Notes: a model not told the origin generated them from the sequence alone. Numbered from the stretch's first letter, positions 970 to 42,400 are shown. The stretch is 42,400 nt of DNA from a virus (IMGVR_UViG_3300010371_000021:1-42400); one strand, 5' to 3'. Translations and numbers: made by a program.

Positions 970-1307
970 TGAAAAAGCTACCAATTGACCTTTCATATAT
1001 CAAGAGATGTGGCTATTGCAATGGTGAAAACCGTTACATTATGCGGGCACCAAATGTAAACACTGGCGTTACAGACGATGACGCAAACAGGATGGCAATA
1101 CAACACGTAGGAAGTACCGAAGGTGGCTTTTGTGAGTCCTGCAAGATGATTACTCAGATGACAGTTGTTGCGTATGATTTTGGAAAGAGGAAAGGTCCTA
1201 GCCATGCCCACATAACTCGCGAATGGAAACAACATGGCTGCGCCCTCACCTTTGGTAACCGCCAGGCAATGCGGGAACATTGGAAGGAATATCATGCCAC
1301 AAAATGA
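969..1307 (+). CDS. Cys/His-rich putative zinc-binding protein
   Basis: TAATG overlap start. Contains CGYCNG and CESCK pairs plus HGC...H..W..YH. Confidence 0.7.
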   Translation: MKKLPIDLSYIKRCGYCNGENRYIMRAPNVNTGVTDDDANRMAIQHVGSTEGGFCESCKMITQMTVVAYDFGKRKGPSHAHITREWKQHGCALTFGNRQAMREHWKEYHATK

Positions 1308-1506
1308 GTACAAGATAACACTTAAGGGCATACTCCCGTCACTTTTCAATAACACTGTTACAGCAGTAGAGGTGTACGAGGCGAATAGTGGCCATGAGGC
1401 CATGGAAAAGGCCCGTAAAGATCTCAAGCACGAGTGCCTTGTAAACGGTCTAGACCCTGAAATAGATAGATTTAGGATAGAGATAATAGATGTGGAGAAA
1501 TTATGA
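1294..1506 (+). CDS. hypothetical protein (70 aa)
   Basis: ORF 1234-1506. The ATG at 1294 (MPQNEYK...) keeps the overlap with the upstream gene small. Confidence 0.65.
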   Translation: MPQNEYKITLKGILPSLFNNTVTAVEVYEANSGHEAMEKARKDLKHECLVNGLDPEIDRFRIEIIDVEKL

Positions 1507-2051
1507 CATTGACAACAGACCGAGCTGGCAATGATGCCCCAAGTAGTGGAGAGGGAGAGCTATCAGAAATTGTTTGGAGCATTTACAAAGAGGGCTTGGA
1601 AGCTGGATTCAATGAAGCTCACAACAAAACTAGTAAAGATGCCGGACAAGTAAAACAGCAAGCGTTGGCTAAGTTGGAATCCTGGCACGCTCAACAAGTA
1701 GAAGCAGCGGGAAAGGCTAAAGACAGCGCTTACTGGGAGCGAAATCAGCTCGTTGCCGCGCTCAGTAAGATTTTTCCAGCGTGGCTTGGATATCACGAAG
1801 GCCTTTGGGAAGACTGCTGGCGCACCATTGTTTACGTAATAATTCCAGTTCATCACGAGGTGAGCATTGGTGGCATGGGTGTGAGAGATGTTGGCAGCCA
1901 TGCGCAACTTAGCTGGCACATTCACGATGACGACAAAAAGTACTTTCATCATCTTGACCTAGGTTTGGAAACATGGGACGGGCATACTACTGAAGAAAAA
2001 TACAAGAGGTTGGCACAGCTGGCCACCCAGCAACGGAAGGGAGAGAAGTAA
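1503..2051 (+). CDS. hypothetical protein (182 aa)
   Basis: ATGA-coupled start and a long ORF. No family recognised with confidence. Confidence 0.8.
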   Translation: MTLTTDRAGNDAPSSGEGELSEIVWSIYKEGLEAGFNEAHNKTSKDAGQVKQQALAKLESWHAQQVEAAGKAKDSAYWERNQLVAALSKIFPAWLGYHEGLWEDCWRTIVYVIIPVHHEVSIGGMGVRDVGSHAQLSWHIHDDDKKYFHHLDLGLETWDGHTTEEKYKRLAQLATQQRKGEK

Positions 2052-2266
2052 TGTACGTAGCAAGTTTAGAGCTTTGCAAGGAGCTGTATGAGCTGAGTGG
2101 GTGGGATGATATAGAGTTCCAGTGGTCAAGTATCGACGGTAAGCATTGGGAAGCTGCCGTTTCGGTACTGTTTGCCGGAGCAACAGAGGTTGCTTATGAC
2201 CTCGGCTATCTGCTGCGGAAGTTGCCACCAGTCATCCAAGAGGATGGTATTTTTAGGAGCTTGTAG
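2051..2266 (+). CDS. N-terminal part of a gene interrupted by one in-frame TAG (see finding)
   Basis: TAATG-coupled start. The ORF ends at TAG 2264-2266, and the same frame stays open through to 2551. Confidence 0.7.
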   Translation: MYVASLELCKELYELSGWDDIEFQWSSIDGKHWEAAVSVLFAGATEVAYDLGYLLRKLPPVIQEDGIFRSL

Positions 2267-2296
2267 ATCAACTGTAACGGTGATGGTACATTTCAC

Positions 2297-2551
2297 TTGG
2301 CTTACGTCGAACCGTATGACAAAGAGTTTAAGGGCAGCCACATTACCAATGGTAACACTTTGGAAGACGCCCTCTGTAAACTCACCATCGGGCTATTCAA
2401 AGACGGCACCCCTGAACAACTCAAAATGAACCTGGAAATCACAGACGACCTCTTAAAGGAATGCGAAAAACTACTTAACCACAACGCCAAGGTCTACAAG
2501 GAGTATCTGGCTGCCCTTACCCCTAAGACTACTAAGGAGGATGATCAATAA
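2297..2551 (+). CDS. C-terminal part of the amber-interrupted gene (a TTG start would be needed if it is independent)
   Basis: Same frame as 2051-2266 (both coordinates = 2 mod 3). No ATG and no clear SD. The motif ..TLEDALCKLTIGLFKDG.. looks like the continuation of the upstream domain. Confidence 0.6.
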   Translation: MAYVEPYDKEFKGSHITNGNTLEDALCKLTIGLFKDGTPEQLKMNLEITDDLLKECEKLLNHNAKVYKEYLAALTPKTTKEDDQ

Positions 2552-2566
2552 AATTGCACTCAATCC

Positions 2567-2595
2567 TTGACATAATGCACCCACTTTGCTAAGCT
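2567..2595 (+). promoter_or_regulatory. sigma70-type promoter with extended -10
   Basis: TTGACA (2567-2572), then a 17-nt spacer ending in TGC, then TAAGCT (2590-2595). Confidence 0.55.
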
Positions 2596-2601
2596 ATAGG
2601 T

Positions 2602-2854
2602 AGTTCAAACGAAGGTAAAAGTTATACAACGCCTTGGCCGCTGAACGACTGCATTACTAGATTCATATCTAGAAAGAAACCGCCGGTAAAGAATGACAGA
2701 TTGGTAGAGATGCCTAAGGCCTGTCACTAGCACTTTCTAGATATGAACCAAACATTAACAGGTTGGCTAGCACTTGTCGCTCTTAGCGGACCCCACCCCC
2801 TCTGAGGGCGGCACGAGCTGGCCAACATATCTAAGCCTATCGAGGAGGTGTAAG
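2602..2854 (+). ncRNA. structured ~250-nt leader/RNA element upstream of a 43-aa ORF
   Basis: A 15-bp perfect helix pairs 2662-2676 TTCATATCTAGAAAG with 2733-2747 CTTTCTAGATATGAA. A 10-bp helix pairs 2762-2771 with 2817-2826. There are competing local hairpins and no ORF. Confidence 0.4.
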
Positions 2855-2986
2855 ATGAGCAAATTAACAACCCGTGTCTTTAGGACTCTAGAAGAAGCAG
2901 ATGTCTTCGTTGACCGTCAGATCGCCCGCCGTAAGCGCGTTAGCTTACTTCGGGACCTGGAACATGTTACTGTGTACGTCGCTTAA
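2855..2986 (+). CDS. small hypothetical protein (43 aa)
   Basis: ATG at 2855 is preceded by a strong GAGGAGG SD (2842-2848). Lies within ORF 2774-2986. Confidence 0.6.
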   Translation: MSKLTTRVFRTLEEADVFVDRQIARRKRVSLLRDLEHVTVYVA

Positions 2987-3021
2987 GTTTGAGAGCCTTT
3001 AAGTGACACTTGTGGAGTACG

Positions 3022-3207
3022 ATGATCGCAACAAACAGAGTTAACAACGTGCGCATACCAGTGGATCTCATCGAAGAGGTCCGCTGTTTGCCACTCAAAC
3101 AACAGGTTCTTACTAAACGGATACATTACATAATTAGGTTAGGGATACGATACCATGCGATTCTGGAGCTGGCAGCACAAAAGAACGAGGAAGAGGTACA
3201 CTCATGA
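3022..3207 (+). CDS. small DNA-binding protein, ribbon-helix-helix-like
   Basis: ATG at 3022 with GGAG upstream. The N-terminal ..VRIPVDLIEEV.. resembles the RHH beta-strand/helix signature. Confidence 0.5.
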   Translation: MIATNRVNNVRIPVDLIEEVRCLPLKQQVLTKRIHYIIRLGIRYHAILELAAQKNEEEVHS

Positions 3208-3270
3208 CCTGTTTTGCCTGTGCCGAAAATGCAATCCTTCCGTGCGTAAATGGATTAGGGGGTTACAGTA

Positions 3271-3495
3271 ATGGACTACTATGAACAAGACGCATATGAG
3301 CCGGATGAGCCACGTACAGCGGTGCATAACAAGCCATTGCTACGGGGAGTGAAAAGACAAACATTGAAGGACTTCATACAGTTTCTAAAGAACAGTGGTT
3401 CTAGTAAGATAGAAGGGGATCTAACGATGACTCTAACTAGTATGTCGTTTAGTGATCTGGAGGAGATGGTGGAGACGTTCTTACACGAGAAGTGA
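3271..3495 (+). CDS. hypothetical protein (74 aa)
   Basis: ATG preceded by a GGGGG SD-like run. Acidic N-terminus. Confidence 0.6.
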   Translation: MDYYEQDAYEPDEPRTAVHNKPLLRGVKRQTLKDFIQFLKNSGSSKIEGDLTMTLTSMSFSDLEEMVETFLHEK

Positions 3496-4074
3496 GAAGG
3501 TGAGTTCTTTAACAATGTAGACCGTAGTTGAGCTGGGAGTAAGAGCATGGGGTACCGGGCCACCCACAACCAGCTTGCTCTCAGCTCCATACGGTCTAAA
3601 TGGTGGATGAATATTGATACCAAGACGGTGCCAGCCAAGCGTACGCACCCGTGAGTTAGATTCTCTCCATGGATGGGGAAAGCTTGGTATCAATACCAAA
3701 TGCTAGTAATACAAAGTGGCGTAGGCTTAGAAGCAGCCATCGCTTAATCAACGCGTAACAGCGATCACCTTTACTAGCACCACACCTACCGGTAAGTGGC
3801 GGAATAGGTAGACGTAGTAGTTTTGTCAGCCAAACAAGAGGCAAATTACGTAGAGGTAGACGGACTGACAACGCCAAGACCTACATGCGGAGTGACTATA
3901 CGAGTAACAAATTGATAGCCATAAATAAAACGGAGACAATGGCTGGCGCTCCATCTCGTCAAATCTCTGCCTTACCAGTAGGTGTGGCCGCATAAGAGAA
4001 CCTTGAGCACTCCACCGTTGAAATAATACGGGCCTGCCAAGAGGAGAGCTCCAGGATTATGCCCGCATAATCCT
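3496..4074 (+). ncRNA. candidate large (~580 nt) structured non-coding RNA
   Basis: No + strand ORF of 60 aa or more. Multiple exact nested long-range helices: 3518-3526/3590-3598, 3530-3539/3578-3587, 3612-3624/3683-3695, 3780-3796/3971-3987 (17 bp with 1 mismatch), 3797-3801/3872-3876, 3823-3829/3865-3871 and 4051-4061/4066-4076. It directly abuts a tRNA. Confidence 0.55.
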
Positions 4075-4160
4075 GGAAGATTGCCTGAGTGGTTTATAGG
4101 GCTTCACTGCTAACGAAGTATACGAAAGTATCATAAGTTCGGATTCTATATCTTCCGCCA
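4075..4160 (+). tRNA. tRNA-Ser(GCU): tRNA-Ser (anticodon GCU), class II with long variable arm, CCA encoded
   Basis: Manual fold. Acceptor is GGAAGAT/ATCTTCC. U8, A14 and G18G19 are present. D stem is CCT/AGG. Anticodon stem is CTTC/GAAG with loop CTGCTAA (GCT at 4109-4111, U33, A37). Variable arm is ATAC-GAAA-GTAT. The T loop is TTCGGAT with an imperfect T stem (one A-C, one G-U). Ends with G73 and CCA. Confidence 0.75.
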
Positions 4161-4259
4161 CCGAATAACTAGACCTTGGTTTGTGCTGGGTTTAGGCGGT
4201 GGCAACTGTATAAATACAGAGTAATTTTATACAGTTGTAGGCTAGTACTGTATAAATAA

Positions 4260-4319
4260 TATAATGTTGTTGCGTTGCAGCACTCCACTCGGTTCTTAAT
4301 GAATCCTGTGGAGTTTTTT
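4260..4319 (+). promoter_or_regulatory. TATAAT box followed by a hairpin and T6 (promoter-proximal terminator or small RNA candidate)
   Basis: TATAAT at 4260-4265. Stem pairs 4282-4288 ACTCCAC with 4308-4314 GTGGAGT, followed by TTTTT at 4315-4319. Confidence 0.35.
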
Positions 4320-4647
4320 ACTTCCATCTTGCTGTATCTATTACAGACTGTTCCGACAGCTGCATATATAGTGGTAATATGTATAGAAAGCGGAAAAGAT
4401 ATGTACCCCCCTTCCCTACAATTCCTCAAGCGTAATAGGGAGTTATTGCGGCTTGAGCATCCTTTGTTTTGGGAATATGGACTCGTGTTGTAGACGTAAT
4501 GACGGTCTTGTAGAGTTTTTGGTTGTATGGTACTGTTCATTTGAGTAACCATTACTAGTCCTGATGTCTACTCATTAACTAAATTTGTAGGGGTCGGGTT
4601 GACTTCCCAGATTAGTTGTCGTATTATACTTACGACTAGTAATGCTT

Positions 4648-4677
4648 GAAACCCCTCGCAAGAAGGGGTTTTCTTTT
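4648..4677 (+). terminator. intrinsic terminator-like hairpin closing the non-coding region
   Basis: GAAACCCCT-CGCAAGA-AGGGGTTT stem followed by a TTTTCTTTT tract. Confidence 0.6.
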
Positions 4678-5226
4678 ATGGCAACATATTTCCGACCTGG
4701 AACGTACGCGTTAGTACCAAATAAGCATTTATTACCGGAAATGAAGGGCGCTCCATTATCCGTGTACATTACACTGTGTTCTCATGCGGACACGGAAGGT
4801 ATTTGCTTTCCAGGTATCAAACGTATTATGGCGATGAGTGGTTACAACAAAGATTCGGTATTCACAGCGTTGAAAAAGCTTATTGAACTGGGGGTCATAG
4901 AACGCACGAAACGTAAATCTAATCTTGGAAATAACGATACAAACCTATACCGTATACTAATAGTAGACGATGTCAAGGGTAGTCCGGTGGAGCAGACTAC
5001 CTACTCTAAAAAACCGGACTACCCTGGTACGGTGGAGCAGACTAGGGTGGTACGGTACACCGGACCCGAACTAACCCATGAACTAACCCATGTAAGAAAG
5101 GATGACATTGAAAAAACAGAAAGCTCAAAACGCATAGATCATCGCGGTGAATATAGCCCTACTGCAGAACGTATGCGTTCAGCTAGACAGAAAGGATTAA
5201 AACCATGGGAGGTACTAACAACATGA
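4678..5226 (+). CDS. winged-helix/HTH DNA-binding protein (possible replication initiator or regulator)
   Basis: ORF 4642-5226. ATG at 4678 lies after the hairpin, with AAGGGG upstream. ..GICFPGIKRIMAMSGYNKDSVFTALKKLIELGVIER.. is wHTH-like. Confidence 0.7.
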   Translation: MATYFRPGTYALVPNKHLLPEMKGAPLSVYITLCSHADTEGICFPGIKRIMAMSGYNKDSVFTALKKLIELGVIERTKRKSNLGNNDTNLYRILIVDDVKGSPVEQTTYSKKPDYPGTVEQTRVVRYTGPELTHELTHVRKDDIEKTESSKRIDHRGEYSPTAERMRSARQKGLKPWEVLTT

Positions 5227-5318
5227 AGAAGTACAAAATTTATAAAGTGCCTGTGATTAAGAAAAGGGAATTTATAAAAATAAAATATTAGAGAATGGTA
5301 GACTTTTATTTTTTTTAG

Positions 5319-5327
5319 TGTTATAAA
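5319..5327 (+). promoter_or_regulatory. extended -10 promoter abutting the terS ATG (leaderless candidate)
   Basis: TGTTATAAA ends 6 nt before ATG 5334. There is no SD. TAGACT lies 17 nt upstream as a -35-like hexamer. Confidence 0.45.
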
Positions 5328-5333
5328 AGTCGT

Positions 5334-5729
5334 ATGGCACATGCAGGTGGTAGACCACTAAAGTTTCAGTCCGTTGAAGAACTCGAGAAGAAGATCGATG
5401 AGTTTTTTGCATCTGGTAAACCACCTCTTATAACATCTTTAGCACTGTGGCTTGACACTGATCGAAAGGTACTTATTGATTATCAGGACCGGCCAGAGTT
5501 TTGTAACACCATAAAAAAGGCAAAATTGCGATGTGAGGAATATGTTGAGGAAACTTTGATGACTACTCGCAATGCAACAGGGGCGATCTTCAACTTAAAG
5601 AACAATTATGGTTGGGTTGATAAGACTGAGCAAGACATTACCAGCAAAGGCGAACAGATAAACCAACCTGTTAGTGAGACGCTTATGACACAGTTTTTGC
5701 AGAACGTGCAGGATAATACGAAACGCTAG
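5334..5729 (+). CDS. terS: terminase small subunit
   Basis: GGRPLKF..EEL...IDEFF, ..SLALWL.., ..IFNLKNNYGWVDK matches the common small-terminase pattern. It sits immediately upstream of terL. Confidence 0.85.
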   Translation: MAHAGGRPLKFQSVEELEKKIDEFFASGKPPLITSLALWLDTDRKVLIDYQDRPEFCNTIKKAKLRCEEYVEETLMTTRNATGAIFNLKNNYGWVDKTEQDITSKGEQINQPVSETLMTQFLQNVQDNTKR

Positions 5730-7345
5730 TGGGTCTTAAAGAAGACCTAGAAGCTGCTAACACCGTAGCCTGGATCATAGGCCAAGGCTTCGTAACAGAG
5801 AACCGTAAACCGTTTGAGTTCTACGATCACCGTTTTCTGCTCACTTATCTCGCAGATAACCACCGGCACAAGGTAAGCAAGAAGTCTAGTCAGATCGGTG
5901 AGACAGTTGGTGAGCTCTTTGACGACTTCCATTTGGCGATACATCGGAAGATGAATGTGATTCATACGCTTCACACCTCAGATGTGCTCAAAGGCTTCGT
6001 GACACCTAAGGTCAACCCTATAATTCAACACAATCCCGCTATTTCAAAACACATGAGCAAGGATAGCGAAGGACTCAAACAGTTTAGAGATAACTTCGTA
6101 TACTTCCGCGGTGCAAGCTCAGAGTCACAGGCCATTAGCATCTCAGCAGACGTGCTCAAAATTGATGAAAAGGACAGATCAGATCTTCGGGTGGTTGAGA
6201 TGTTCCAGTCTCGTTTAGACTTTAGCCAGTACAAATGGATTAGAGAGTTTTCTAACCCTTCTGCTGTTGGTTACGGTGTGGACGAGACCTATAACAGGTC
6301 TGATCAGCGTCATTGGTTTGTTGAGTGCCACCATTGTGGCCATTGGGCATGGGTGGATTTTGAACAGTCAAGTGACGACAATCACTACATTAATCAATTA
6401 CAAGAAATATTTGCTTGTGGCAAGTGTCACCGTGAGCTATCTGACGCTGATCGTTGTAACGGTGAATGGGTTGCCAAGTGGCCTTCTCGTAGCGACAAGA
6501 TCCATGGCTATTGGTTCTCTCAGATGATGGCACCGTGGTTTACAGCTGCTGAGATCATGGATAAGTTCAGAACGACGAGCACTGAGTACTTCCACAACTT
6601 CGTGTTAGGTAAGGCTTGGACACAAGCCGATCTGCTTATTGACCGCGACACGATTACCAAAGCATTACGACCTGGTAAGCCAATCCAACGACACATTGTT
6701 ATGGGTAGCGACATCGGTGTTCCACACTGGTATTGGTTAGGTACGCCAGATGGTGTGTTTAAGTGGGGTCGAGCGAAAGACTGGGAAGAGCTTGAGTATC
6801 TGTTTAACTTCTACCAGTGTGAAGCATGGGTTATGGATTCAATGCCAGAGTTCACTCAGGTGCAGAAGATGATCAAGAAGTACTCAGGTCGTGCATTCGC
6901 CTGCCAGTTCAATAAGGATCGTGCAGCTGCAGGTATCATTCGGTGGCAAGAGGGCGATAAACGTGGCTTTGTGTATGTTGACCGTACAAAGGCCATAGAC
7001 CGCGTGGTGAATGAGCTCAGTAGTGGGAACATACCCATCTATGGCAACGTGTCTGACGTTGAGGAGTTCATTACGCACGCGGCGAACATGTACCGCTCAG
7101 TTGAGACAGACGACAAAGGCCTCACCAAGATAGACTGGATGACTATACGCAAGCCCGATCACCTTGTGCTTGCCCTTGTGTACTGGCGTGTGGCACTTGA
7201 ACGTGTCTTTAGTGGCATTCACAGTAATGTAGTAGAGACTCCTGTGCTGAACAAACCGACAGTCCCGACTGTTGTTGATGGCAAAATACCGATCGATATA
7301 GATGTTAGCGCAAGCCTGGAACGGGCGCGGACCTTGCACGTTTAG
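5729..7345 (+). CDS. terL: terminase large subunit (GpA-like, with Cys4 zinc ribbon)
   Basis: 538 aa. GTG start overlaps the terS stop. Walker-A-like SSQIGET. CHHCGH...CGKCH zinc ribbon followed by GEWV, as in GpA-type terminases. Confidence 0.88.
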   Translation: MGLKEDLEAANTVAWIIGQGFVTENRKPFEFYDHRFLLTYLADNHRHKVSKKSSQIGETVGELFDDFHLAIHRKMNVIHTLHTSDVLKGFVTPKVNPIIQHNPAISKHMSKDSEGLKQFRDNFVYFRGASSESQAISISADVLKIDEKDRSDLRVVEMFQSRLDFSQYKWIREFSNPSAVGYGVDETYNRSDQRHWFVECHHCGHWAWVDFEQSSDDNHYINQLQEIFACGKCHRELSDADRCNGEWVAKWPSRSDKIHGYWFSQMMAPWFTAAEIMDKFRTTSTEYFHNFVLGKAWTQADLLIDRDTITKALRPGKPIQRHIVMGSDIGVPHWYWLGTPDGVFKWGRAKDWEELEYLFNFYQCEAWVMDSMPEFTQVQKMIKKYSGRAFACQFNKDRAAAGIIRWQEGDKRGFVYVDRTKAIDRVVNELSSGNIPIYGNVSDVEEFITHAANMYRSVETDDKGLTKIDWMTIRKPDHLVLALVYWRVALERVFSGIHSNVVETPVLNKPTVPTVVDGKIPIDIDVSASLERARTLHV

Positions 7346-8515: not shown

Positions 8516-8696
8516 TGTAGAAGAAACGGAACATGATGTGACGATCACCTATACCCGTGCGGATGGTACTGGTAGTCACCAACGGTTTAACAAGTGGGAC
8601 TTAACAGATAAGTCACCCAAAGCAGTTGATAAGAATGCAGCTAAGGCCTTACGTAAACTAGCAGATAGAATTGAAGGAGCTACAACTAATGTCTAG
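8508..8696 (+). CDS. hypothetical protein (62 aa)
   Basis: GTG start with GGAG 8 nt upstream. Overlaps its neighbours by a few nt. Confidence 0.55.
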   Translation: MINVEETEHDVTITYTRADGTGSHQRFNKWDLTDKSPKAVDKNAAKALRKLADRIEGATTNV

Positions 8697-10314
8697 TTCA
8701 GGTATTCCCCCCCGAGAAGTCAAAGACCTCCAATACGGCCTGGACGCCCGCGCCACAGTCCTAGCCGGTGTAACCAAAGGCTACGAAGCCGTAAGTTCAA
8801 CGTATGGCCCTAGTGGTCAGAACGTCCTCCAAGGCATGCCGTTCGGTGATCCAGTCCTAACAAGAGACGGTGTAACCGTTGCCAAGCGTGTAGTACTAGA
8901 AAACCGCGCCGAAAACGATGCCTGGTCTGTCGTCCGTCAAGCTAGTGAGAAGACCAACAAGACTGCTGGAGATGGCACAACTGCCACTGTAGTATTGGCC
9001 TACAATCTCTATAAAGCCGCACACCAACGCGTTGTAGCCGGTGAAAATCCGATGAAACTCAAAGCTCAGATGGCTGAAGATAGCCGCAAGGTGATCGAGT
9101 TTATCAAATCTAAGAGCGTAAAAGCTGATAAACACCTATTAGAAGTAGCCACGGTGAGCTCTGGTGACCCAAACATTGGTGCGTTAGTCTCAGATGTTAT
9201 GCAGGAAATTGGCCTCAACGGTGGCATTACTATCCGTGAGCAGAACTACCCAACAATTGACGTTGAAAAGATCAACGGTTATTACTTCGACCGAGGCTTT
9301 TTCGCCCTAAATCAACAGATCGAGTGGGCAAAACCTCACATTCTAGTCACCCAAAAGCCCCTGACGGCTGCGAGTGACGTACTGCCTCTTATCCAGATGA
9401 TCAACCAACAGACTGAGAAGAAGTTGGTGGTTATCGGTGAGGTTCGGGGTGAGGCACTACAGATTCTACTTGCCAACACTATGGCGCAGGCAGATAGTCA
9501 GGGTCGTCCAGTCCCATTTGAAGGTGTTGTCGTCCCTCCACCGATGTATGGTGAGGAATCCAAGCTATTCATGGAAGACATTGCCATCTATACCGGTGCT
9601 AAAGTATTAACTGATGCAGAGACCACGATCAGTGAGAGCCATTTGGGCAGTGCAGAAAGAGTTCAGGTTTCCCAAGAACGCGCAATCGTATTCAAGGGCA
9701 AAGGAAACGCTGAGGCTATTAGCTCACGGGCCGCTGAGATCAAGAAGAACATCGACAAAGAGACTAACTCGCACGCCAAGGACCAGCTAGAGCAGCGTTA
9801 CAGCAAGCTCGTTGGTAAGATCGCCATTGTAAACGTTGGCGCCTCTACTCAGACAGAGATGGAAGAGCTACGCTTCCGTGTCGAGGATGCTATTGAGGCT
9901 ACTAAGAGTGCTATGGCTGATGGTGTGTTACCTGGTGGTGCCACGGCATTAGTACACGTAGCTTACCTAACAAACCCCACGACCGGACCCGATAACAAGA
10001 ATGTCTTTGGTGGTATATACCCGCGGCCTGCGATTGATACGCTGTTTAGAGAGGCTCTACTCGACACCTTTAAAAAGCTTTACGACAATGCTGGTGAATC
10101 ACCTGACTACAGGGTTAAGCAGATACAGGCTAGTAAATTTGGTATGGGATTCAACCTCCGCAACATGACCGAAGAGCCCATAGACCTAGCCAAGGCAGGC
10201 ATATGGGACGCCACTCGTGCAGTCGTACAGACCATTGAGAATGCAACGAGCGCTGCAGGTGCTCTCCTAACTGTAGGGGCGTTGGTGACGCCACGAGATG
10301 AAGAAGACGCTTAG
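8689..10314 (+). CDS. groEL: GroEL-like chaperonin (Cpn60 family)
   Basis: ATG at 8689 after a GAAGGAG SD. Contains YGPSGQNV, TRDGVTVAK, AGDGTTATVVLA (GDGTT motif) and VEDAIEATKSAMADGVLPGG. About 541 aa. Ends ...PRDEEDA without a GGM repeat tail. Confidence 0.93.
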   Translation: MSSSGIPPREVKDLQYGLDARATVLAGVTKGYEAVSSTYGPSGQNVLQGMPFGDPVLTRDGVTVAKRVVLENRAENDAWSVVRQASEKTNKTAGDGTTATVVLAYNLYKAAHQRVVAGENPMKLKAQMAEDSRKVIEFIKSKSVKADKHLLEVATVSSGDPNIGALVSDVMQEIGLNGGITIREQNYPTIDVEKINGYYFDRGFFALNQQIEWAKPHILVTQKPLTAASDVLPLIQMINQQTEKKLVVIGEVRGEALQILLANTMAQADSQGRPVPFEGVVVPPPMYGEESKLFMEDIAIYTGAKVLTDAETTISESHLGSAERVQVSQERAIVFKGKGNAEAISSRAAEIKKNIDKETNSHAKDQLEQRYSKLVGKIAIVNVGASTQTEMEELRFRVEDAIEATKSAMADGVLPGGATALVHVAYLTNPTTGPDNKNVFGGIYPRPAIDTLFREALLDTFKKLYDNAGESPDYRVKQIQASKFGMGFNLRNMTEEPIDLAKAGIWDATRAVVQTIENATSAAGALLTVGALVTPRDEEDA

Positions 10315-36226: not shown

Positions 36227-36272
36227 GGTATTATCTAAGGGCAGGACTCCCAAGCCTTGCTCTTAGATTGAG

Positions 36273-36308
36273 AACAGCTCAGCCGCATCCTGGGCTGTTT
36301 TCTTTTTA
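36273..36308 (+). terminator. terminator-like hairpin plus T-tract
   Basis: AACAGC...GCTGTT (or CAGCC/GGCTG) followed by TTTCTTTTTATT. Confidence 0.5.
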
Positions 36309-36491: not shown

Positions 36492-36776
36492 ATGTCAACA
36501 GAATCTCTCAGTGAAACAGTTAAACATTACAGTGACAGTAATTTAAACATTAAAAACTACAGTGACAGTAAACACAGTAATATCACTGTAACAGACGTTT
36601 TTAAAAACTTAGTAGACGTAATCCCTAATGACGATTATATGCCTTACTACGTAAGTCGATTTAAACAACTAGGTTATACTAGATTTATGGAATTAGTCAA
36701 CAAGGCTCGAAAGTCTGGGAATGATCCACAACGCTTGTTTTTTTGGATGCTTAAGAACAATGAGTTAGTGAGATGA
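36492..36776 (+). CDS. hypothetical protein (94 aa)
   Basis: GAAAGG SD. The C-terminal motif is shared with 27545-27778(-). Confidence 0.7.
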   Translation: MSTESLSETVKHYSDSNLNIKNYSDSKHSNITVTDVFKNLVDVIPNDDYMPYYVSRFKQLGYTRFMELVNKARKSGNDPQRLFFWMLKNNELVR

Positions 36777-37768
36777 TAGACGAGATTATATCCCCAAGCT
36801 ACATGGTGGGTGGTTGTGTTAGGGACGTACTTTTAGGTCGTGAACCCAAAGACTGGGATTTTGCCACGCCCCTGTTGCCAGATGAAGTGGAGGCAAAAGT
36901 ACGGGCATCAGGTCGGAAAGCTCATATCACTGGCAAACGTTTCGGCACCATTGGCTTTAAGTTTGAAGATAAATTTGTCGAGGTGACCACTTTTAGGCAC
37001 GAAAAATATGGTAAAACGCGTAAGCCAGAAGTTCAATTCGTTACTTCGATTAATGACGATCTTGCACGACGTGATTTTACTATTAACGCTATTGCCAAGA
37101 GAGGCACAAAGATCATTGATCCATTTAATGGACGTGAAGATTTACAAATGGGGCTTATCAAGACAGTCGGTAAGCCTACAGAACGATTCAATGAAGACCC
37201 GTTACGTATGCTTAGGGCGGTTCGGTTTCAGGCACAGCTTGGGTTTATTATTGAAGAATATACGCTCGCCTCGATAAACAAGAATGCACATAAGATTCTG
37301 AGCATCAGTCGCGAACGGTGGATGCAAGAACTTGATAAGCTGCTTGTCGCAGATTACGTGGTTCTAGCTCTTCACACACTATTCGCCACAGATCTTATCA
37401 AGTTTTTGTTACCCGAACTCCGTATCCAGATCGGGTATGATCAGAATAGTGATTGGCACGAATATAGTTTAGCTGAACACACTATAAAGACTATTGGGGC
37501 TACTCCCGCTAGTACCACTTTACGTTGGGCCGCCCTATTGCACGATATAGGTAAACCTTTCGTACGTACTGATAATAAGCGTGGAAGTAGCAACTACGTG
37601 TTCCACGATGTTGTTGGTGCTGAAATGATTTACGGTATTGGAAAGAGGCTTAAATGGTCCAATGAACGCTTACAGATGATGCAAGAGCTTGTCAGAAACC
37701 ACCTAAGCGATGACAGCCCATTGCGTAATGCCGACAATTCAAGTAAACGTTTAGGAATAAAATTATGA
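36773..37768 (+). CDS. cca: tRNA nucleotidyltransferase (CCA-adding enzyme) with HD domain
   Basis: GGCVRDVLLGREPKDWDFAT (class II NTase G-box and DxD), RRDFTINA, and HDIGKP (HD). Confidence 0.9.
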   Translation: MIDEIISPSYMVGGCVRDVLLGREPKDWDFATPLLPDEVEAKVRASGRKAHITGKRFGTIGFKFEDKFVEVTTFRHEKYGKTRKPEVQFVTSINDDLARRDFTINAIAKRGTKIIDPFNGREDLQMGLIKTVGKPTERFNEDPLRMLRAVRFQAQLGFIIEEYTLASINKNAHKILSISRERWMQELDKLLVADYVVLALHTLFATDLIKFLLPELRIQIGYDQNSDWHEYSLAEHTIKTIGATPASTTLRWAALLHDIGKPFVRTDNKRGSSNYVFHDVVGAEMIYGIGKRLKWSNERLQMMQELVRNHLSDDSPLRNADNSSKRLGIKL

Positions 37769-38157
37769 CCCATCCCCAAATCCTAGAGAAGGCAATACAA
37801 AAGGCTATTGATGGTGGATGGCGCTATGATTTGGGCAACGGGTGGGCAAGTTTTGGCGATCATGACTTCCGAGCACCCGTGGTAAACAACGACGGTGACA
37901 TTGAACAGTATGATGGCGACGGCCACTGGATAACCCTTCCGAAAGAGTCCTTCATCTTCAACCACGAGTTTGCTAAGGCGCTGTGGGGCGATAACGTGTA
38001 CTACACCACCTATCAAAACACGTGGGGAGGTAGGACAACTAAAGACGACCCTAATGCCATCAAAGGACATGCTAATGGATTACCTAAGTGGCAATATAGG
38101 CTTCAGCAGATGGTAATCGCCGACGATCCTGTCGCCTATTTGGGGGAGCATATATGA
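37765..38157 (+). CDS. hypothetical protein (130 aa)
   Basis: ATGA-coupled to cca. Confidence 0.8.
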   Translation: MTHPQILEKAIQKAIDGGWRYDLGNGWASFGDHDFRAPVVNNDGDIEQYDGDGHWITLPKESFIFNHEFAKALWGDNVYYTTYQNTWGGRTTKDDPNAIKGHANGLPKWQYRLQQMVIADDPVAYLGEHI

Positions 38158-38200
38158 TCGACAAAATCTTCTATAAAACCAAAGAAGTGGCAGACAGCCC

Positions 38201-38229
38201 TTGACAAAACCCCTCCCGCAGACTACACT
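38201..38229 (+). promoter_or_regulatory. near-consensus sigma70 promoter
   Basis: TTGACA (38201-38206), an exact 17-nt spacer, then TACACT (38224-38229). Confidence 0.55.
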
Positions 38230-38394
38230 GAGAGTACCATCTAAACAAAGGGTAAAATATGTATCAATCAGAGGAAAGGTTAACCGTAAGCGTATGAAGA
38301 CTTACTTCGACACTTATATCAAACCGTTGAACGATGAGCTCCGTGTTCTCATTGCCGTCAGTGAAAAGGGCAATGTAGTTAGGAGGGTACGGGG

Positions 38395-39432
38395 ATGAGT
38401 CTTCTACAACCCGCTTCAAACCAAACTGCCTACCTAAAAGCCGGTATTCTCGGTTTCCAAGGTTCTGGTAAAACATACACTGCCTCACGCTTAGCAACTG
38501 GCTTAGCTAAGATGAGTGGTAAGGCAAAACCAAGAGTCGCCTTCTTCGATACGGAAAAAGGTTCAGATTTTCTCGTCAAGTATTTCAATGACCAAGGTAT
38601 ACAATTCGATGTTGTCAAGTCACGCGCATTCTCGGACCTTTTAGAGTTCATTAAAGAGGTGCAACAAGAGCAGTATGACGTGGCCATCATCGACTCAGTG
38701 TCACATATCTGGCGAGATCTTACAGAGAGTTACCAGAACAAACTCCGACGTCAGAATGGCCTACTATTCCAGGACTGGTCCAAAGTGAAAGGTGAGTGGC
38801 GACGCTTTACCGATGCATTCATCAACAGCAACATTCACATGATCGTTCTAGGACGCGCTGGCTATGAGTACGACTTCGATACCGATGAATCTGGCAAAAA
38901 AGAGCTCATTAAGACCGGAACCAAGATGAAGGCAGAGGGTGAGTTCGGTTATGAATCAGACATCTTGCTGGAGATGGAGCGCATCAAGGACGGTAAGAAA
39001 ACGATTAATCGTTGCTACGTCCTGAAGGACCGAACCGACACTATTGACGGCAAACAGATCGACTTCCCGAAGTTCGAAGACTTTAAAACAGTCATTGACT
39101 ACCTGAATATCGGTGGTGAACACAAAGGCATAGATGTTGACCGCAATTCTGAGGATATGTTTGACGATCCAGACAAGTCCTATGCCAAAGAGCGTGAGAT
39201 GCGTGAGATTGCCCTAGAAGAGCTGCAACAGGAGCTTGTGCTCAATGACCTTGCTGGAACGTCTTCGGCCACTCAGAAGCGTCGTGTGGAGCTCTTAATG
39301 GAAGTATTTGGGACATCTAGCAAAGCAGCAATCGAGGGGATGAGGTCACAACAGATTCGGGACGGCATTATGCAGATTCGGTCGATACTTGGAGAAGAGA
39401 GATCTAGAGAATTAACAAACCAGACTTCGTAA
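38395..39432 (+). CDS. AAA_24/Sak4-like RecA-fold ATPase
   Basis: AGGAGG SD. Walker A GFQGSGKT, Walker B-like VAIIDSVSHIW, and ..VLKDR.. near the C-terminal part of the core. Confidence 0.75.
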   Translation: MSLLQPASNQTAYLKAGILGFQGSGKTYTASRLATGLAKMSGKAKPRVAFFDTEKGSDFLVKYFNDQGIQFDVVKSRAFSDLLEFIKEVQQEQYDVAIIDSVSHIWRDLTESYQNKLRRQNGLLFQDWSKVKGEWRRFTDAFINSNIHMIVLGRAGYEYDFDTDESGKKELIKTGTKMKAEGEFGYESDILLEMERIKDGKKTINRCYVLKDRTDTIDGKQIDFPKFEDFKTVIDYLNIGGEHKGIDVDRNSEDMFDDPDKSYAKEREMREIALEELQQELVLNDLAGTSSATQKRRVELLMEVFGTSSKAAIEGMRSQQIRDGIMQIRSILGEERSRELTNQTS

Positions 39433-39465
39433 GCAAAACATTAATTCTTATACAGGGAAAACACT

Positions 39466-39792
39466 ATGGCAAAACTAGAAACAATTGAACTAAATGGCAA
39501 GACCTATCGTGAGGTTGACCCCACCGCGACCGATATTCAACCAGCGGTCGATACCGACCACATTATCGTCATTGCGCAAAGAGGTTGGATTTTTGAAGGA
39601 CACAAAGACAAGTCCGTTACTGATAAGATTCAGCTCCTGAATGCTAATGTAGTACGCTCGTGGTCAAACGGTAAAGGTATTGGTGGTTTGTGTAGTAAGG
39701 GTAACAAGTCTGATTACAAGCTCGATCCTGTTGGTGCCGTATCATTCCCGAATGAGGGCATAATTGCCGTAATCGATATTACGGAGTGGTAG
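39466..39792 (+). CDS. hypothetical protein (108 aa)
   Basis: Clean ORF. Confidence 0.75.
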   Translation: MAKLETIELNGKTYREVDPTATDIQPAVDTDHIIVIAQRGWIFEGHKDKSVTDKIQLLNANVVRSWSNGKGIGGLCSKGNKSDYKLDPVGAVSFPNEGIIAVIDITEW

Positions 39793-40062
39793 ATGAGCTA
39801 CGTTCGAAACGCTAACACAGCAGACGAAGCTCAACCGATAACACTGCATCCAGCCGGCAACGGCTACGGCAACGGCTACGGCGACGGCTACGGCGACGGC
39901 TACGGCGACGGCTACGGCGACGGCTACGGCTACGGCTACGGCGACGGCTACGGCGACGGCTACGGCAACGGCTACGGCGACGGCTACGGCGACGGCGACG
40001 GCAACGGCTACGGCGACGGCTACGGCGACGGCTACGGCTACGGCGACGGCGGAATTCTGTAG
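39793..40062 (+). CDS. (Gly-Tyr-Gly-Asp/Asn)n low-complexity repeat protein (89 aa)
   Basis: ATG directly after TAG 39790-39792. A 21-aa unique N-terminus is followed by about 16 GYG[DN] units. Confidence 0.6.
   Translation: MSYVRNANTADEAQPITLHPAGNGYGNGYGDGYGDGYGDGYGDGYGYGYGDGYGDGYGNGYGDGYGDGDGNGYGDGYGDGYGYGDGGIL
39856..40053. repeat. 12-bp tandem repeat array (GGCTACGGCGAC)n with variants
   Basis: Read directly: about 16 units, with GAC/AAC and GGCTAC/GGCGAC variants. Confidence 0.95.
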
Positions 40063-40064
40063 TT

Positions 40065-40226
40065 ATGAGGTGGAATCTCCGAAGATCTATCCTGGGAAAA
40101 TCTATATACACAGCGGGGAATAAGACTGGCTACCAGATTAGTCCGAACGATATCTTCACGATTGTCTATAACTTCCAGGATATGACGTTCAGAGTAATAC
40201 TCAGGAGAAACGATGGCGCAGAATAG
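40065..40226 (+). CDS. possible small ORF (53 aa)
   Basis: Fills the 40062-40213 gap. MRWNLRRSILGKSIYTAGNKTGYQISPNDIFTIVYNFQDMTFRVILRRNDGAE. Confidence 0.4.
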   Translation: MRWNLRRSILGKSIYTAGNKTGYQISPNDIFTIVYNFQDMTFRVILRRNDGAE

Positions 40227-40497
40227 AGCACAGAAGAAGCTAAACGTAGAGCACTACGTTCCAGCTCTCGAAGGTTTCGCAATAGATAATGACGTGGATC
40301 TGCAAGTATTCGGTGATGCAGGTATCCACTGGAGGTTATCAGGTGGGTGTGTCCTAGACTGTTGGCCTACTACCGGAAGATTCTGGATAAAAGAGTTACC
40401 ACTTATCCGTTCAACGTCACACGTCATCGAACGCAAGGGCAAGCTGCCCTGGGACTATATGGAACTAGATAAGTTTTTGAGGAGACTATTTCTATGA
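40213..40497 (+). CDS. hypothetical protein (94 aa)
   Basis: AGGAGA SD. Confidence 0.7.
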   Translation: MAQNRAQKKLNVEHYVPALEGFAIDNDVDLQVFGDAGIHWRLSGGCVLDCWPTTGRFWIKELPLIRSTSHVIERKGKLPWDYMELDKFLRRLFL

Positions 40498-40637
40498 GCA
40501 CTGCGGAAGAGTTCTTAAGTGACCTTGTGAGAGATGTACTATCTGTAGCACCAATGGACCGCCAAAAGATCGTTAGAGGATACGCTAGACACCTCGAGGC
40601 GAGAGAAGTGTCGTGGGGGAAGCGCGCTAATGTATAA
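40494..40637 (+). CDS. small hypothetical protein (47 aa)
   Basis: ATGA-coupled start. Below the track cutoff. Confidence 0.5.
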   Translation: MSTAEEFLSDLVRDVLSVAPMDRQKIVRGYARHLEAREVSWGKRANV

Positions 40638-40788
40638 AAGATGGAAACAGTATCCAATAAAGAGATCTGTTCAGCTAAAACAAGAGACATTCGCTGACCT
40701 ACTTGAAGCGGCTGACTCGAAAGGGATGAAGTACGGCACACTTATGAGAAAAATAATCGAGGAATGGTTAGAAAGGGGTGATGGGTAG
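40630..40788 (+). CDS. ribbon-helix-helix (CopG/Arc-like) protein (52 aa)
   Basis: ..KRSVQLKQETFADLLEAADSKGMKYGTLMRKIIEEWLER.. matches the RHH pattern. Confidence 0.5.
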   Translation: MYKRWKQYPIKRSVQLKQETFADLLEAADSKGMKYGTLMRKIIEEWLERGDG

Positions 40789-40793
40789 AGATT

Positions 40794-40904
40794 ATGACGA
40801 AGACTAGGTTATTCATCAGGCACTACGAGTACCCTCTCTTGTACACCTTAGTATGGCTACCATTAACAGTTGTTATTGTGCGGATGATATGGGGGAAAGT
40901 ATGA
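40794..40904 (+). CDS. possible small membrane peptide (36 aa)
   Basis: MTKTRLFIRHYEYPLLYTLVWLPLTVVIVRMIWGKV. Its stop overlaps the next ATG. Confidence 0.3.
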   Translation: MTKTRLFIRHYEYPLLYTLVWLPLTVVIVRMIWGKV

Positions 40905-41221
40905 CACCTACTTACCAGCAACGACTAGAAGCGATTCTACGCGGTATGCGCTTTAGCACTAATTTTGATAGCGTCTTAGAGAAGACTGCCGCTGACGACA
41001 AGGTGTACGCAGAGACGGTAGCTGCTATTAATGCACTGAATGTGGACACCTCGAGGCACATTTGCACTCTGCCCCTCAACATCGTCAACATATCCCGTAA
41101 AGACCTCGGTACTCCTACAGATCGAGTAGTCATAACCGATGAACAGGGCAATAAATACGTAAAAGTAAGTAAATTGAACACTGTTGATGCAGTTGTTCGG
41201 AAGGTGTTGGAGGAGATATGA
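40901..41221 (+). CDS. hypothetical protein translationally coupled to rtcB (106 aa)
   Basis: ATG at 40901 after a GGGGGAAAG SD. ATGA overlap with the rtcB start. Confidence 0.7.
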   Translation: MTPTYQQRLEAILRGMRFSTNFDSVLEKTAADDKVYAETVAAINALNVDTSRHICTLPLNIVNISRKDLGTPTDRVVITDEQGNKYVKVSKLNTVDAVVRKVLEEI

Positions 41222-42387
41222 TACAAATTAACAAAAAACTCTATAGCTGGGCCTCTATCATTGAGCCGAACACTGAAGCACAGGCCATCACGACAAGTAG
41301 TATGCCTTTCATATGGCATCACTATGCGTTAATGCCCGATGCTCATCTAGGTGCAGGAGCGACGGTCGGTTCGGTAATACCTACATTAGGAGCTATCATG
41401 CCTGCCGCCGTAGGTGTAGATATTGGTTGTGGAATGATAGCCATAAAAACCCAATTTACTAAAGAAGATTTAATACTTAGAGATTTAAAGACGCTACGCG
41501 AAAGCATCGAACGTTCCATCCCCCTATCCGCAGGTGCATACAATCTTGACATAAAAGAGACCGCTAAGTCTAAGATCACCGAGTTGGAGGCAAAGGCGGG
41601 CGACAGACTTAAATTCTACGATGGTTTCAAGAACGACTGGCGCGTACAACTTGGAACGTTGGGATCGGGCAATCATTTTATTGAGGTAAGTCTTGACGAG
41701 AAAGATAGCGTATGGCTGTTTCTACACTCTGGCAGTCGAGGTATAGGCAACAAGATAGCCACATATCATATCAAAATCGCCCAGGATTTGTGCAAACGTT
41801 GGTTCATACCACTACCTGACCCAGATTTAGCTTATCTTATAGACGGGACGAAAGAGTTTGGTAATTATATAACTGATCTGAATTGGGCCCAGCTCTTCGC
41901 GTTGCTTAATCGCGAAGAGATGATGGATAGACTTATTAACGATTTTGAGCATTGGATCGGTAGAAAAACTGAAGAACAAGAGAGGATCAATTGTCACCAC
42001 AACTTCACGCTCAAAGAGCATCATTTCGGCAAAGATGTGTGGTTAAGCCGTAAGGGTGCTATACAGGCAGATGCTGGGCGGCTGGGGCTTATTCCTGGGT
42101 CCATGGGTACTGCTAGTTACGTCGTGGAAGGTTTGGGTAATCATCTGGCATTTGATAGTTCTCCGCATGGAGCAGGACGCGTTTATTCACGTTCTGTAGC
42201 ACGCAGAAAGTTCACCTTTGATGATTTAGAAACGGCGATGGAAGGGATTGAGTACCGCAAAACAGATGCATTTCTTGACGAAATACCAGCGGCTTATAAG
42301 GATATCGACCAGGTGATGGAAGATGCAAAGGATTTGGTGAAGGTCAAACACACATTACACCAAATATTGAACGTAAAGGGGGATTAG
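41218..42387 (+). CDS. rtcB: RtcB 3'-phosphate/5'-hydroxyl RNA ligase
   Basis: PDAHLGAGATVGSVIP, VGVDIGCGM, GSGNHFIE, LHSGSRGIGN, CHHNF, PGSMGTASYVV and SSPHGAGR are all hallmark RtcB motifs. Confidence 0.95.
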   Translation: MIQINKKLYSWASIIEPNTEAQAITTSSMPFIWHHYALMPDAHLGAGATVGSVIPTLGAIMPAAVGVDIGCGMIAIKTQFTKEDLILRDLKTLRESIERSIPLSAGAYNLDIKETAKSKITELEAKAGDRLKFYDGFKNDWRVQLGTLGSGNHFIEVSLDEKDSVWLFLHSGSRGIGNKIATYHIKIAQDLCKRWFIPLPDPDLAYLIDGTKEFGNYITDLNWAQLFALLNREEMMDRLINDFEHWIGRKTEEQERINCHHNFTLKEHHFGKDVWLSRKGAIQADAGRLGLIPGSMGTASYVVEGLGNHLAFDSSPHGAGRVYSRSVARRKFTFDDLETAMEGIEYRKTDAFLDEIPAAYKDIDQVMEDAKDLVKVKHTLHQILNVKGD

Positions 42388-42400
42388 TATGACAACCCCA
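42278..42400. repeat. Terminal overlap: identical copy of 1-123
   Basis: See feature 1-123. Confidence 0.95.

Follow-up and report, generated by a model that had tools for sequence, protein, structure and literature searches.

The stretch analysed here, called the window throughout, is the 42,400-nucleotide (nt) viral contig IMGVR_UViG_3300010371_000021 (positions 1–42400), a complete tailed-phage genome that carries genes for an RtcB-type RNA ligase and for a CCA-type tRNA nucleotidyltransferase (Cca). Judging from their sequences and by analogy with characterised systems, we give a probability of about 55% to the reading that these are two independent RNA-end repair enzymes, encoded in the early/middle gene block, that would mend damage inflicted by host RNases. 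An RNA-repair role is plausible because the active sites are intact, the genes belong to one co-directional block and homologues are frequent in phages. RtcB ligases and CCA enzymes are common in phages and have already been described as an RNA-repair counter-defence, and the window adds one more phage that has both. As a by-product, the analysis also turned up an RNA element that copies the GTPase-associated centre (GAC) of 23S rRNA. The two enzyme genes are:

36773–37768, plus strand: class II tRNA nucleotidyltransferase (CCA-adding type) with a C-terminal HD/HDIG phosphohydrolase domain, 331 amino acids (aa) (Pfam, phrog_2244)
41218–42387, plus strand: RtcB RNA 3'-phosphate/2',3'-cyclic-phosphate to 5'-OH ligase of the short bacterial type, 389 aa (Pfam, PHROG, residue alignment)

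Two intact RNA-end repair enzymes

The RtcB open reading frame (ORF) matches the Pfam RtcB family (PF01139) with an E-value of 3.4e-116, residues 22–388 aligning to profile positions 1–426, and phrog_1075 with an E-value of 3.9e-143. When it was aligned by phmmer with RtcB of P. horikoshii (1uc2), all metal ligands and the histidine that accepts guanosine monophosphate (GMP) proved identical in the phage protein: the metal motifs MPDAH (Asp65/His67), VDIGCG (Asp95/Cys98) and GSGNHF (His203) are kept, as are the further motifs LHSGSRG (His234), CHHNF (His329) and SPHGAGR (His404, the GMP-His). The original prediction, made from the sequence alone, of an RtcB with every metal and GMP-His motif in place is thus confirmed by the Pfam match and the alignment, and no catalytic His or Cys residue is substituted. 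Homologues are found in 701 phage records, with a top identity of 58% (Mycobacterium, Corynebacterium and Rhodococcus phages), and in at least 80 viral contigs, with a best identity of 67%. Among the relatives are ligases of the actinobacteriophages Amohnition, DS6A, SamW and Trogglehumper, whose records name them RtcB-like RNA ligase or tRNA-splicing ligase; they show 56–58% identity over their full length and the same short bacterial-type architecture. The window differs in its genomic backbone, in having no further gene between rtcB and the assembly junction, and in the presence of cca in the same genome.

Classical partners of these enzymes are missing. RtcA, archease, Pnkp, Rnl, Hen1 and Ro were all absent from the window by Pfam and PHROG searches of the scanned ORFs and by tblastn, which agrees with the predicted absence of RtcA, archease, Pnkp and Hen1; no scanned ORF gave a family match to the RtcB partners archease, RtcA or TROVE, no PrfH-like gene turned up there, and tblastn with the Pnkp, Rnl1 and RlaP proteins of a related contig (L124) returned no match to it. 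The idea of a Ro/Y-RNA system, combining RtcB and a tRNA-like RNA with Ro60, was rejected, as the 547-aa candidate is a GroEL-like chaperonin.

Class II nucleotidyltransferases carry the head consensus motifs GGxVRD...DxD (A), RRD (B) and EDxxR (D). Compared with the CCA enzymes 6ibp and 1miv, Cca of the window keeps all three, as GGCVRD...DWD (A), RRDFTINA (B) and EDPLRMLRAVRF (D), and its Pfam matches cover the PolyA_pol head (4.3e-33), the PolyA_pol_RNAbd neck (3.7e-14) and the HD domain (2.8e-9). The HDIG model TIGR00277 scores 33.3 bits, over its cut-off of 27.6, and the motif LLHDIGK is present in the translation. Pfam and the motif alignment therefore uphold the call of a class II CCA-type enzyme with an HD domain, with the qualification that its tail is missing. 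Both the E. coli type of Cca and the actinobacterial type (TIGR02692) have the same class II head and neck motifs and HD/HDIG domain; they measure 410–470 aa, whereas the phage protein has 331 aa and no C-terminal tail. Homologues of the tRNA nucleotidyltransferase occur in about 500 phage records and are similarly compact. A separate 179-aa ORF with a cca-like head lies about 1 kb upstream of the terminase in two related contigs (L115, 3960–4499; L116, 6671–7039), where it is 61% identical to residues 2–124 of the window Cca. It was rejected as a conserved full-length gene, being a head-domain fragment with a Cys-rich tail, and may be a truncated or repurposed nucleotidyltransferase.

Proposed mechanism and points against it

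In the scheme that we favour, the substrates of RtcB would be RNAs, mostly tRNAs, in which metal-independent RNases have left 2',3'-cyclic-phosphate or 3'-phosphate ends together with 5'-OH ends, and the ligase would seal these breaks; candidate attackers would be HEPN-type anticodon nucleases (PrrC/RloC) and colicin-type or MazF-type toxins. Cca would rebuild trimmed 3'-CCA ends, its HD domain first removing 2',3'-cyclic or 3'-phosphate groups, by analogy with E. coli Cca. RtcB and Cca would act separately, each on its own. The tRNA-Ser gene of the phage (described below) already encodes CCA, so that Cca would serve repair rather than synthesis. A comparison of jumbo phages interpreted RtcB, ATP-dependent ligases, RlaP, CCA-adding enzymes and tRNAs as repair against host RNases (PMC7824862), and defences that cleave tRNAs are by now recognised as common (PMC11555353, PMC10802454, PMC13096335). 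The proposed logic, that tRNAs which a host RNase has cut are sealed again by the phage, is that of Pnkp and Rnl1 of T4 against PrrC. The chemistry differs, in that RtcB would join 3'-phosphate or 2',3'-cyclic-phosphate ends directly to 5'-OH ends with GTP and would need no kinase-phosphatase healing step; a T4-type cassette is present in the related contig L124, and the window has no homologue of Pnkp, Rnl1 or RlaP.

Several observations weigh against repair of host-inflicted damage by these two enzymes. A number of recent tRNA-cutting defences use TOPRIM or PIN nucleases, which leave 5'-phosphate/3'-OH ends that are not RtcB substrates. Neither protein reaches the NCBIfam equivalog cut-offs. 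RtcB scores 154 bits against 407 for PRK09588, and is therefore a member of the family rather than the named orthologue or equivalog. Cca misses every such cut-off: its closest NCBIfam model, the actinobacterial CCA enzyme TIGR02692, gives 250 bits against 438.8, and the protein spans only positions 31–343 of the 466 in that model, the C-terminal tail being absent. With the tail domain missing, the specificity could be CCA-adding, A-adding or poly(A); two CCA-enzyme models (250 and 224 bits) rank above PcnB (165 bits), all of them under their cut-offs, and CCA specificity is likely on this sequence evidence. The gene arrangement argues in the same direction. The cca and rtcB genes are 3.4 kb apart, with about 10 ORFs between them, a Sak4-like recombinase among these. 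A cca homologue lies within ±8 kb of RtcB at none of 80 RtcB-encoding viral loci, and RtcB is likewise missing within 10 kb in all 22 terminase relatives, of which two (L115 and L116) have the cca head fragment only. Since the two genes are neither neighbours nor found to co-occur, the notion of a toolkit derives from their co-presence in one genome.

The cca and rtcB genes, then, do not make up a compact or conserved module. What survives of the originally proposed counter-defence module is the pair of intact enzymes and a repair role that is plausible and has published precedent; the module itself does not.

An RNA mimic of the 23S GTPase-associated centre

The RNA genes lie across the circular junction from rtcB, close to the start of the window as it is numbered:

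3496–4074, plus strand: ORF-free structured RNA region directly upstream of tRNA-Ser, 579 nt (fold against shuffles)
3701–3779, plus strand: structural mimic of the 23S rRNA GTPase-associated centre (end of H42, H43 and H44; the L11/thiostrepton site) (Rfam)
4075–4160, plus strand: tRNA-Ser(GCU), type II, CCA encoded, weak T-stem (ARAGORN cloverleaf)
4648–4672, plus strand: terminator-like hairpin (9-bp stem and T-run)

The first reading of the DNA had placed a tRNA-Ser(GCU) and a large RNA at 3496–4160, and ARAGORN, folding and the terminal repeat all agree with it. ARAGORN draws a cloverleaf with a long variable arm and a GCU anticodon, and the gene ends in GCCA at its 3' end. The T-stem is weak, with G53-U61 instead of G53-C61 and one A·C mismatch, and the Rfam tRNA model (RF00005) gives no match at the gathering score or at E ≤ 10; the gene is about 70% identical over 92 nt to the tRNA-Ser(GCU) genes of L160 and L246, with the acceptor pair compensated. 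The region directly upstream contains no convincing ORF and folds with a minimum free energy of −203.9 kcal/mol, the z-score against shuffles being −5.87 on the plus strand and −3.7 on the minus strand. No Rfam family covers 3496–4074 as a whole, and no DNA like it was found in the fetched loci outside the GAC hairpin. ROOL and GOLLD are large, ornate non-coding phage RNAs found beside tRNA genes (PMC12286853), and the RNA of the window resembles them in being large, structured, non-coding and adjacent to a tRNA gene; it differs in holding a mimic of the 23S GTPase centre, which is absent from the descriptions in the ROOL/GOLLD papers. Identity with either was rejected, no Rfam model match being obtained at E ≤ 1 or E ≤ 10.

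Beyond the tRNA gene, about 490 nt (4161–4647) hold no convincing ORF and are followed by the hairpin at 4648–4672, which probably ends the transcription unit of the RNA genes. The ORF at 4642–5226 is an HTH_36 replication initiator (Pfam and replication-initiator PHROGs); the hairpin falls inside its annotated start, and the true start is therefore probably the ATG at 4679.

Positions 3701–3779 match positions 1079–1158 of the Rfam LSU_rRNA_bacteria model with 35 bits and an E-value of 6.5e-9, with compensated helices. Both loops are kept, GGCUUAGAAGCAGCC as the A1067 loop and GCGUAAYAGC as the A1095 loop, and all three helices differ in sequence from those of E. coli yet still pair. The mimic thus has the same three-helix H42/H43/H44 layout and the same loops as the 23S GTPase-associated centre (E. 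coli 1051–1108), from which it differs by standing alone, outside any 23S gene; a comparison of 3400–4700 with the E. coli rrn operon detected no other rRNA-like piece.

The element is not confined to the window. The 18-base H43 loop sequence occurs 123 times in at least 119 viral contigs, and at 92 of these occurrences an H44-like motif follows 69–324 nt downstream. All 92 are split and run, from 5' to 3', through a closing stem, H43, UUAAAGAGU, a variable insert with its own stem, UUUGGCGUAAUAGCACAC and the return strand of the closing stem. Related elements lie in L129–L247 and L253. Covariation was assessed on 64 distinct split sequences in which a linker stood in for the insert, with slid pairing partners as the control. 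Pairing is kept in 84% of cells, against 34–49% in the slid controls, both partners change in 19 of 26 pairs, and the covariation score is 0.54, against 0.12–0.18. Loop conservation is imposed by a search that was made with the exact loop sequence; the stem covariation and the H44 motif are not. An unsplit stand-alone copy like that at 3701–3779 was not found in other viral contigs, the sole unsplit match, considered as another mimic, having been rejected as genuine enterobacterial 23S rRNA. Long, mutually aligning matches to the 18-mer were in turn rejected as true 23S genes, since they are duplicate phage contigs with the split architecture.

According to Rfam, dense tRNA arrays surround the split elements, and 65 of 97 distinct elements have a tRNA on the same strand within 500–600 nt. 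No Rfam family covers them. Unannotated copies are present in the cultured phages Pseudomonas pf16, Astolliot and Milchi, Aeromonas 4_4572 and Xanthomonas XacN1, and also in Cronobacter GAP32, Pectobacterium CBB, Serratia BF and several Erwinia jumbo phages, so that Rak2-like jumbo phages are among the carriers; in pf16 the mimic occupies the 253-nt gap between tRNA-Asn and tRNA-Pro. Other RNA genes occur near some copies: a phage tmRNA (transfer-messenger RNA) gene lies about 340 nt downstream of the mimic in L161 (8525–9133), a group I intron shares its tRNA island in L209 (2334–2589), and GOLLD is 3.4 kb away in L148. No published description of a phage mimic of the GAC or L11 site was found, which, with partial coverage of the literature, is a weak sign of novelty.

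We consider it possible, and put it forward tentatively, that phages encode an undescribed class of RNA that copies the 23S GAC and serves as a decoy or sponge, or as the nucleator of a mini stalk particle, in the window forming a kit with RtcB, Cca and the tRNA. Such a decoy could act on uL11/uL10 in free form, on RelA-dependent signalling or on a toxin directed at the GAC, Tre23 being one example. The toxin Tre23 is an ADP-ribosyltransferase that modifies helix 44 of the GTPase-associated centre (PMC8661411), and a decoy role is conceivable given that an H44-directed ADP-ribosylating toxin is known. If so, the split mimic in tRNA arrays would be processed like a tRNA, and the kit would protect or redirect translation.

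An unusually large structured RNA fused directly to a tRNA also raises the alternative that RtcB and Cca, which both act on RNA ends, serve the RNAs of the phage itself, Cca keeping the 3' end of the tRNA-Ser or the tRNA-like 3' end of the 580-nt RNA and RtcB joining or circularising fragments processed from that RNA. The presence of cca, Pnkp or Rnl1 near 9 of the 119 GAC-mimic loci fits this explanation, which we nevertheless regard as unlikely: RtcB is near none of the 119, most of the RtcB phages that were examined lack such an RNA in the vicinity, Rfam finds no self-cleaving ribozyme, intron or split tRNA, and the tRNA-Ser encodes its own CCA.

Small overlapping ORFs beside the enzymes

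Two small ORFs adjoin the enzyme genes:

37765–38157, plus strand: 130-aa protein of a large phage family, overlapping the end of cca (533 relatives)
40901–41221, plus strand: 106-aa near-orphan ORF with alternative starts at 40853 and 40946, its stop overlapping the rtcB start (ORF list)

The original prediction took these ORFs to be translationally coupled to cca and rtcB and proposed them as new cofactors or specificity factors of the two enzymes. The overlaps are real, as 4-nt ATGA sequences are present at 37765–37768 and 41218–41221. In a crude gene chain of 65 ORFs, however, 14 of the 64 junctions overlap (10 by 4 nt and 4 by 1 nt), and cca is overlapped on its upstream side too, so the coupling is not specific.

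Among the candidate starts of the 106-aa ORF, only 40901 is preceded by a Shine-Dalgarno-like sequence (GGGGGAAAG); the gene caller chose 40946. A word-indexed search of 5.8 billion proteins returned only the ORF itself, no relatives were found in viral contigs, and Pfam, PHROG, PADLOC and NCBIfam gave no family match; for both small ORFs and both enzymes together, PADLOC produced generic HD matches only. An exhaustive HMMER search of 1.84 billion representatives yielded one credible relative, a 59-aa protein with 49% identity over residues 75–121. The repeat proteins P0122 and P0124 were discounted as relatives because each owes its score to many weak repeat matches added together, and a single-sequence AlphaFold2 model of the ORF was unusable, with a predicted local distance difference test (pLDDT) of 41. 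The gene for the 59-aa relative lies in contig L255, upstream of the terminase genes, where its start is overlapped by 4 nt by the stop of a C5 DNA methylase gene; no rtcB is found near it in 9 kb. L255 holds homologues of both small ORFs and neither rtcB nor cca within its 9 kb. At 3454–4760, immediately before its terminase genes, it also has a stretch of about 1.3 kb without genes, as the window does; the stretch in L255 contains no tRNA and bears no similarity to the RNA of the window.

The 130-aa protein belongs to a family with 533 relatives, none of which has a Pfam domain. Three conserved helical segments, ILEKAIQKAIDGGW, FNHDFAKALWG and WQYHLQQMVIADDPIKYLGEH, are separated by hypervariable inserts, and the AlphaFold2 model is confident (pLDDT 85.8), with nothing at E<0.3 in a Foldseek search of the PDB and of the viral predicted structures in BFVD. 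Invariant helices with hypervariable inserts, tandem copies, mobility and an unmatched confident fold suggest a diversifying binding protein.

Its gene context was sampled at L001–L021, L124–L128, L249–L252, L255 and the window. Neither cca nor rtcB lies within 6 kb of the homologues in 21 viral loci, and none of 109 neighbouring ORFs scanned with Pfam matched an RNA-repair family, the families present being terminase, portal, methylase, recombination and HNH; further contexts add the terminase small subunit and GroEL-like proteins as neighbours. For the most part the gene is next to terminase, portal or GroEL-like genes; it varies in position among related genomes, and tandem copies occur. 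Overall, tblastn and Pfam place RNA-repair genes near 4 of about 34 loci, the window included, and none near the other 30 or so. In L124 the closest relative (53% identity) directly follows an RlaP–Rnl1–Pnkp cassette, in L010 a relative follows a Pnkp fragment, and in L023 one lies 3.2 kb upstream of RtcB; these four loci could reflect a real but weak link or, equally, a shared accessory region ahead of the packaging genes. The cassette of L124, a 41-kb contig, spans 1296–6854 and reads TerD, TerC, RlaP, T4-type RNA ligase 1 and a Pnkp-like kinase-phosphatase before the 130-aa homologue.

The proposal that the two small proteins are RtcB or Cca cofactors is thereby largely refuted by gene context, and we hold it to be very improbable. 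In its favour are the genuine 4-nt overlaps and the 130-aa relatives beside repair genes in L124, L010 and L023. Against it, the co-occurrence of the small ORFs with rtcB or cca in related phages, once examined, proved absent for the 106-aa ORF and lacking at about 30 of 34 loci for the 130-aa protein, whose gene shifts position and has neighbours of the terminase, portal, GroEL-like, methylase and recombination kinds. The one relative of the 106-aa ORF overlaps a DNA methylase gene, L255 keeps both small-ORF homologues with neither enzyme, the genes upstream of RtcB in its 7 closest relatives are all different from one another, and overlapping starts are common in the genome. The predicted cofactors, not being conserved beside rtcB or cca in relatives, are not borne out. 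They are best explained as lineage-specific accessory genes that neighbour the enzymes by chance.

Genome and gene block

The remaining features of the enzyme block and of the contig ends are:

36270–36302, plus strand: terminator-like hairpin 3' of the lysis genes (13-bp stem, then T-run)
36492–36776, plus strand: 94-aa ORF, first gene of the block, its stop overlapping the cca start by 4 nt (ORF list)
42278–42400, no strand assigned: assembly-overlap repeat of 1–123 (exact prefix/suffix match)

The first 123 nt of the window equal its last 123 nt exactly, and the contig is therefore circular, with a length of about 42,277 bp (42.3 kb). The hairpin at 36270–36302 marks the start of the long co-directional early/middle block that contains cca and rtcB. 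The 94-aa ORF at its head has no significant family match in Pfam, PHROG, PADLOC or NCBIfam, and at the far end a gene at 112–444 begins 1 nt past the RtcB stop, across the circular junction. The genome encodes small and large terminase subunits, an SU10-type adaptor, a baseplate protein, a CHAP endolysin, a holin-like protein, a GroEL-like chaperonin, a Sak4-like AAA_24 protein and the HTH_36 replication initiator. No similar DNA-level relative was found in the phage reference collection, and the nearest viral contigs have terminase identities of 40–60%.

The GroEL-like chaperonin (8671–10314, plus strand) lies between the terminase and portal genes and matches Cpn60_TCP1 at 2e-46 and the NCBIfam GroEL subfamily with 370 bits; homologues are present in the related contigs L107–L112, L250 and L252. 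An ORF at 39793–40062 (plus strand) encodes an 89-aa (GYGD)n sequence, with a repeat at 39855–40051 that consists of 16.4 copies of a 12-nt unit (93% matches), and may be either a real Gly/Tyr-rich protein or a DNA repeat of another role. One ORF within 5334–35950 contains a NUMOD3 motif, typical of homing endonucleases, at an E-value of 4.8e-6.

Discussion

Of the explanations considered, the one that we find hardest to credit is that RtcB acts on rRNA as a ribosome-rescue ligase, like bacterial RtcB with PrfH, in connection with the rRNA-mimic RNA. In its favour are the 23S-site mimic encoded by the genome and a weak match to the release-factor-associated RtcB model TIGR03073 (129.9 bits); against it are the distance of that score from the cut-off of 271.8, the lack of a PrfH-like gene in the window and the absence of RtcB near the other GAC mimics.

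Repair by RtcB and Cca, each acting on its own, is accordingly the reading that we retain for the two enzymes. For their small neighbours, a start/stop overlap alone turns out to say little about which phage genes are functional partners, and on present evidence these ORFs are not worth pursuing as RNA-repair cofactors.

The GAC mimic, which came out of this work as a by-product, matters more than the finding of RtcB and Cca. If the tentative reading given above is true, and the RNA binds uL11/uL10 or a GAC-directed toxin, it would represent a new route by which phages interfere with translation, or protect it.

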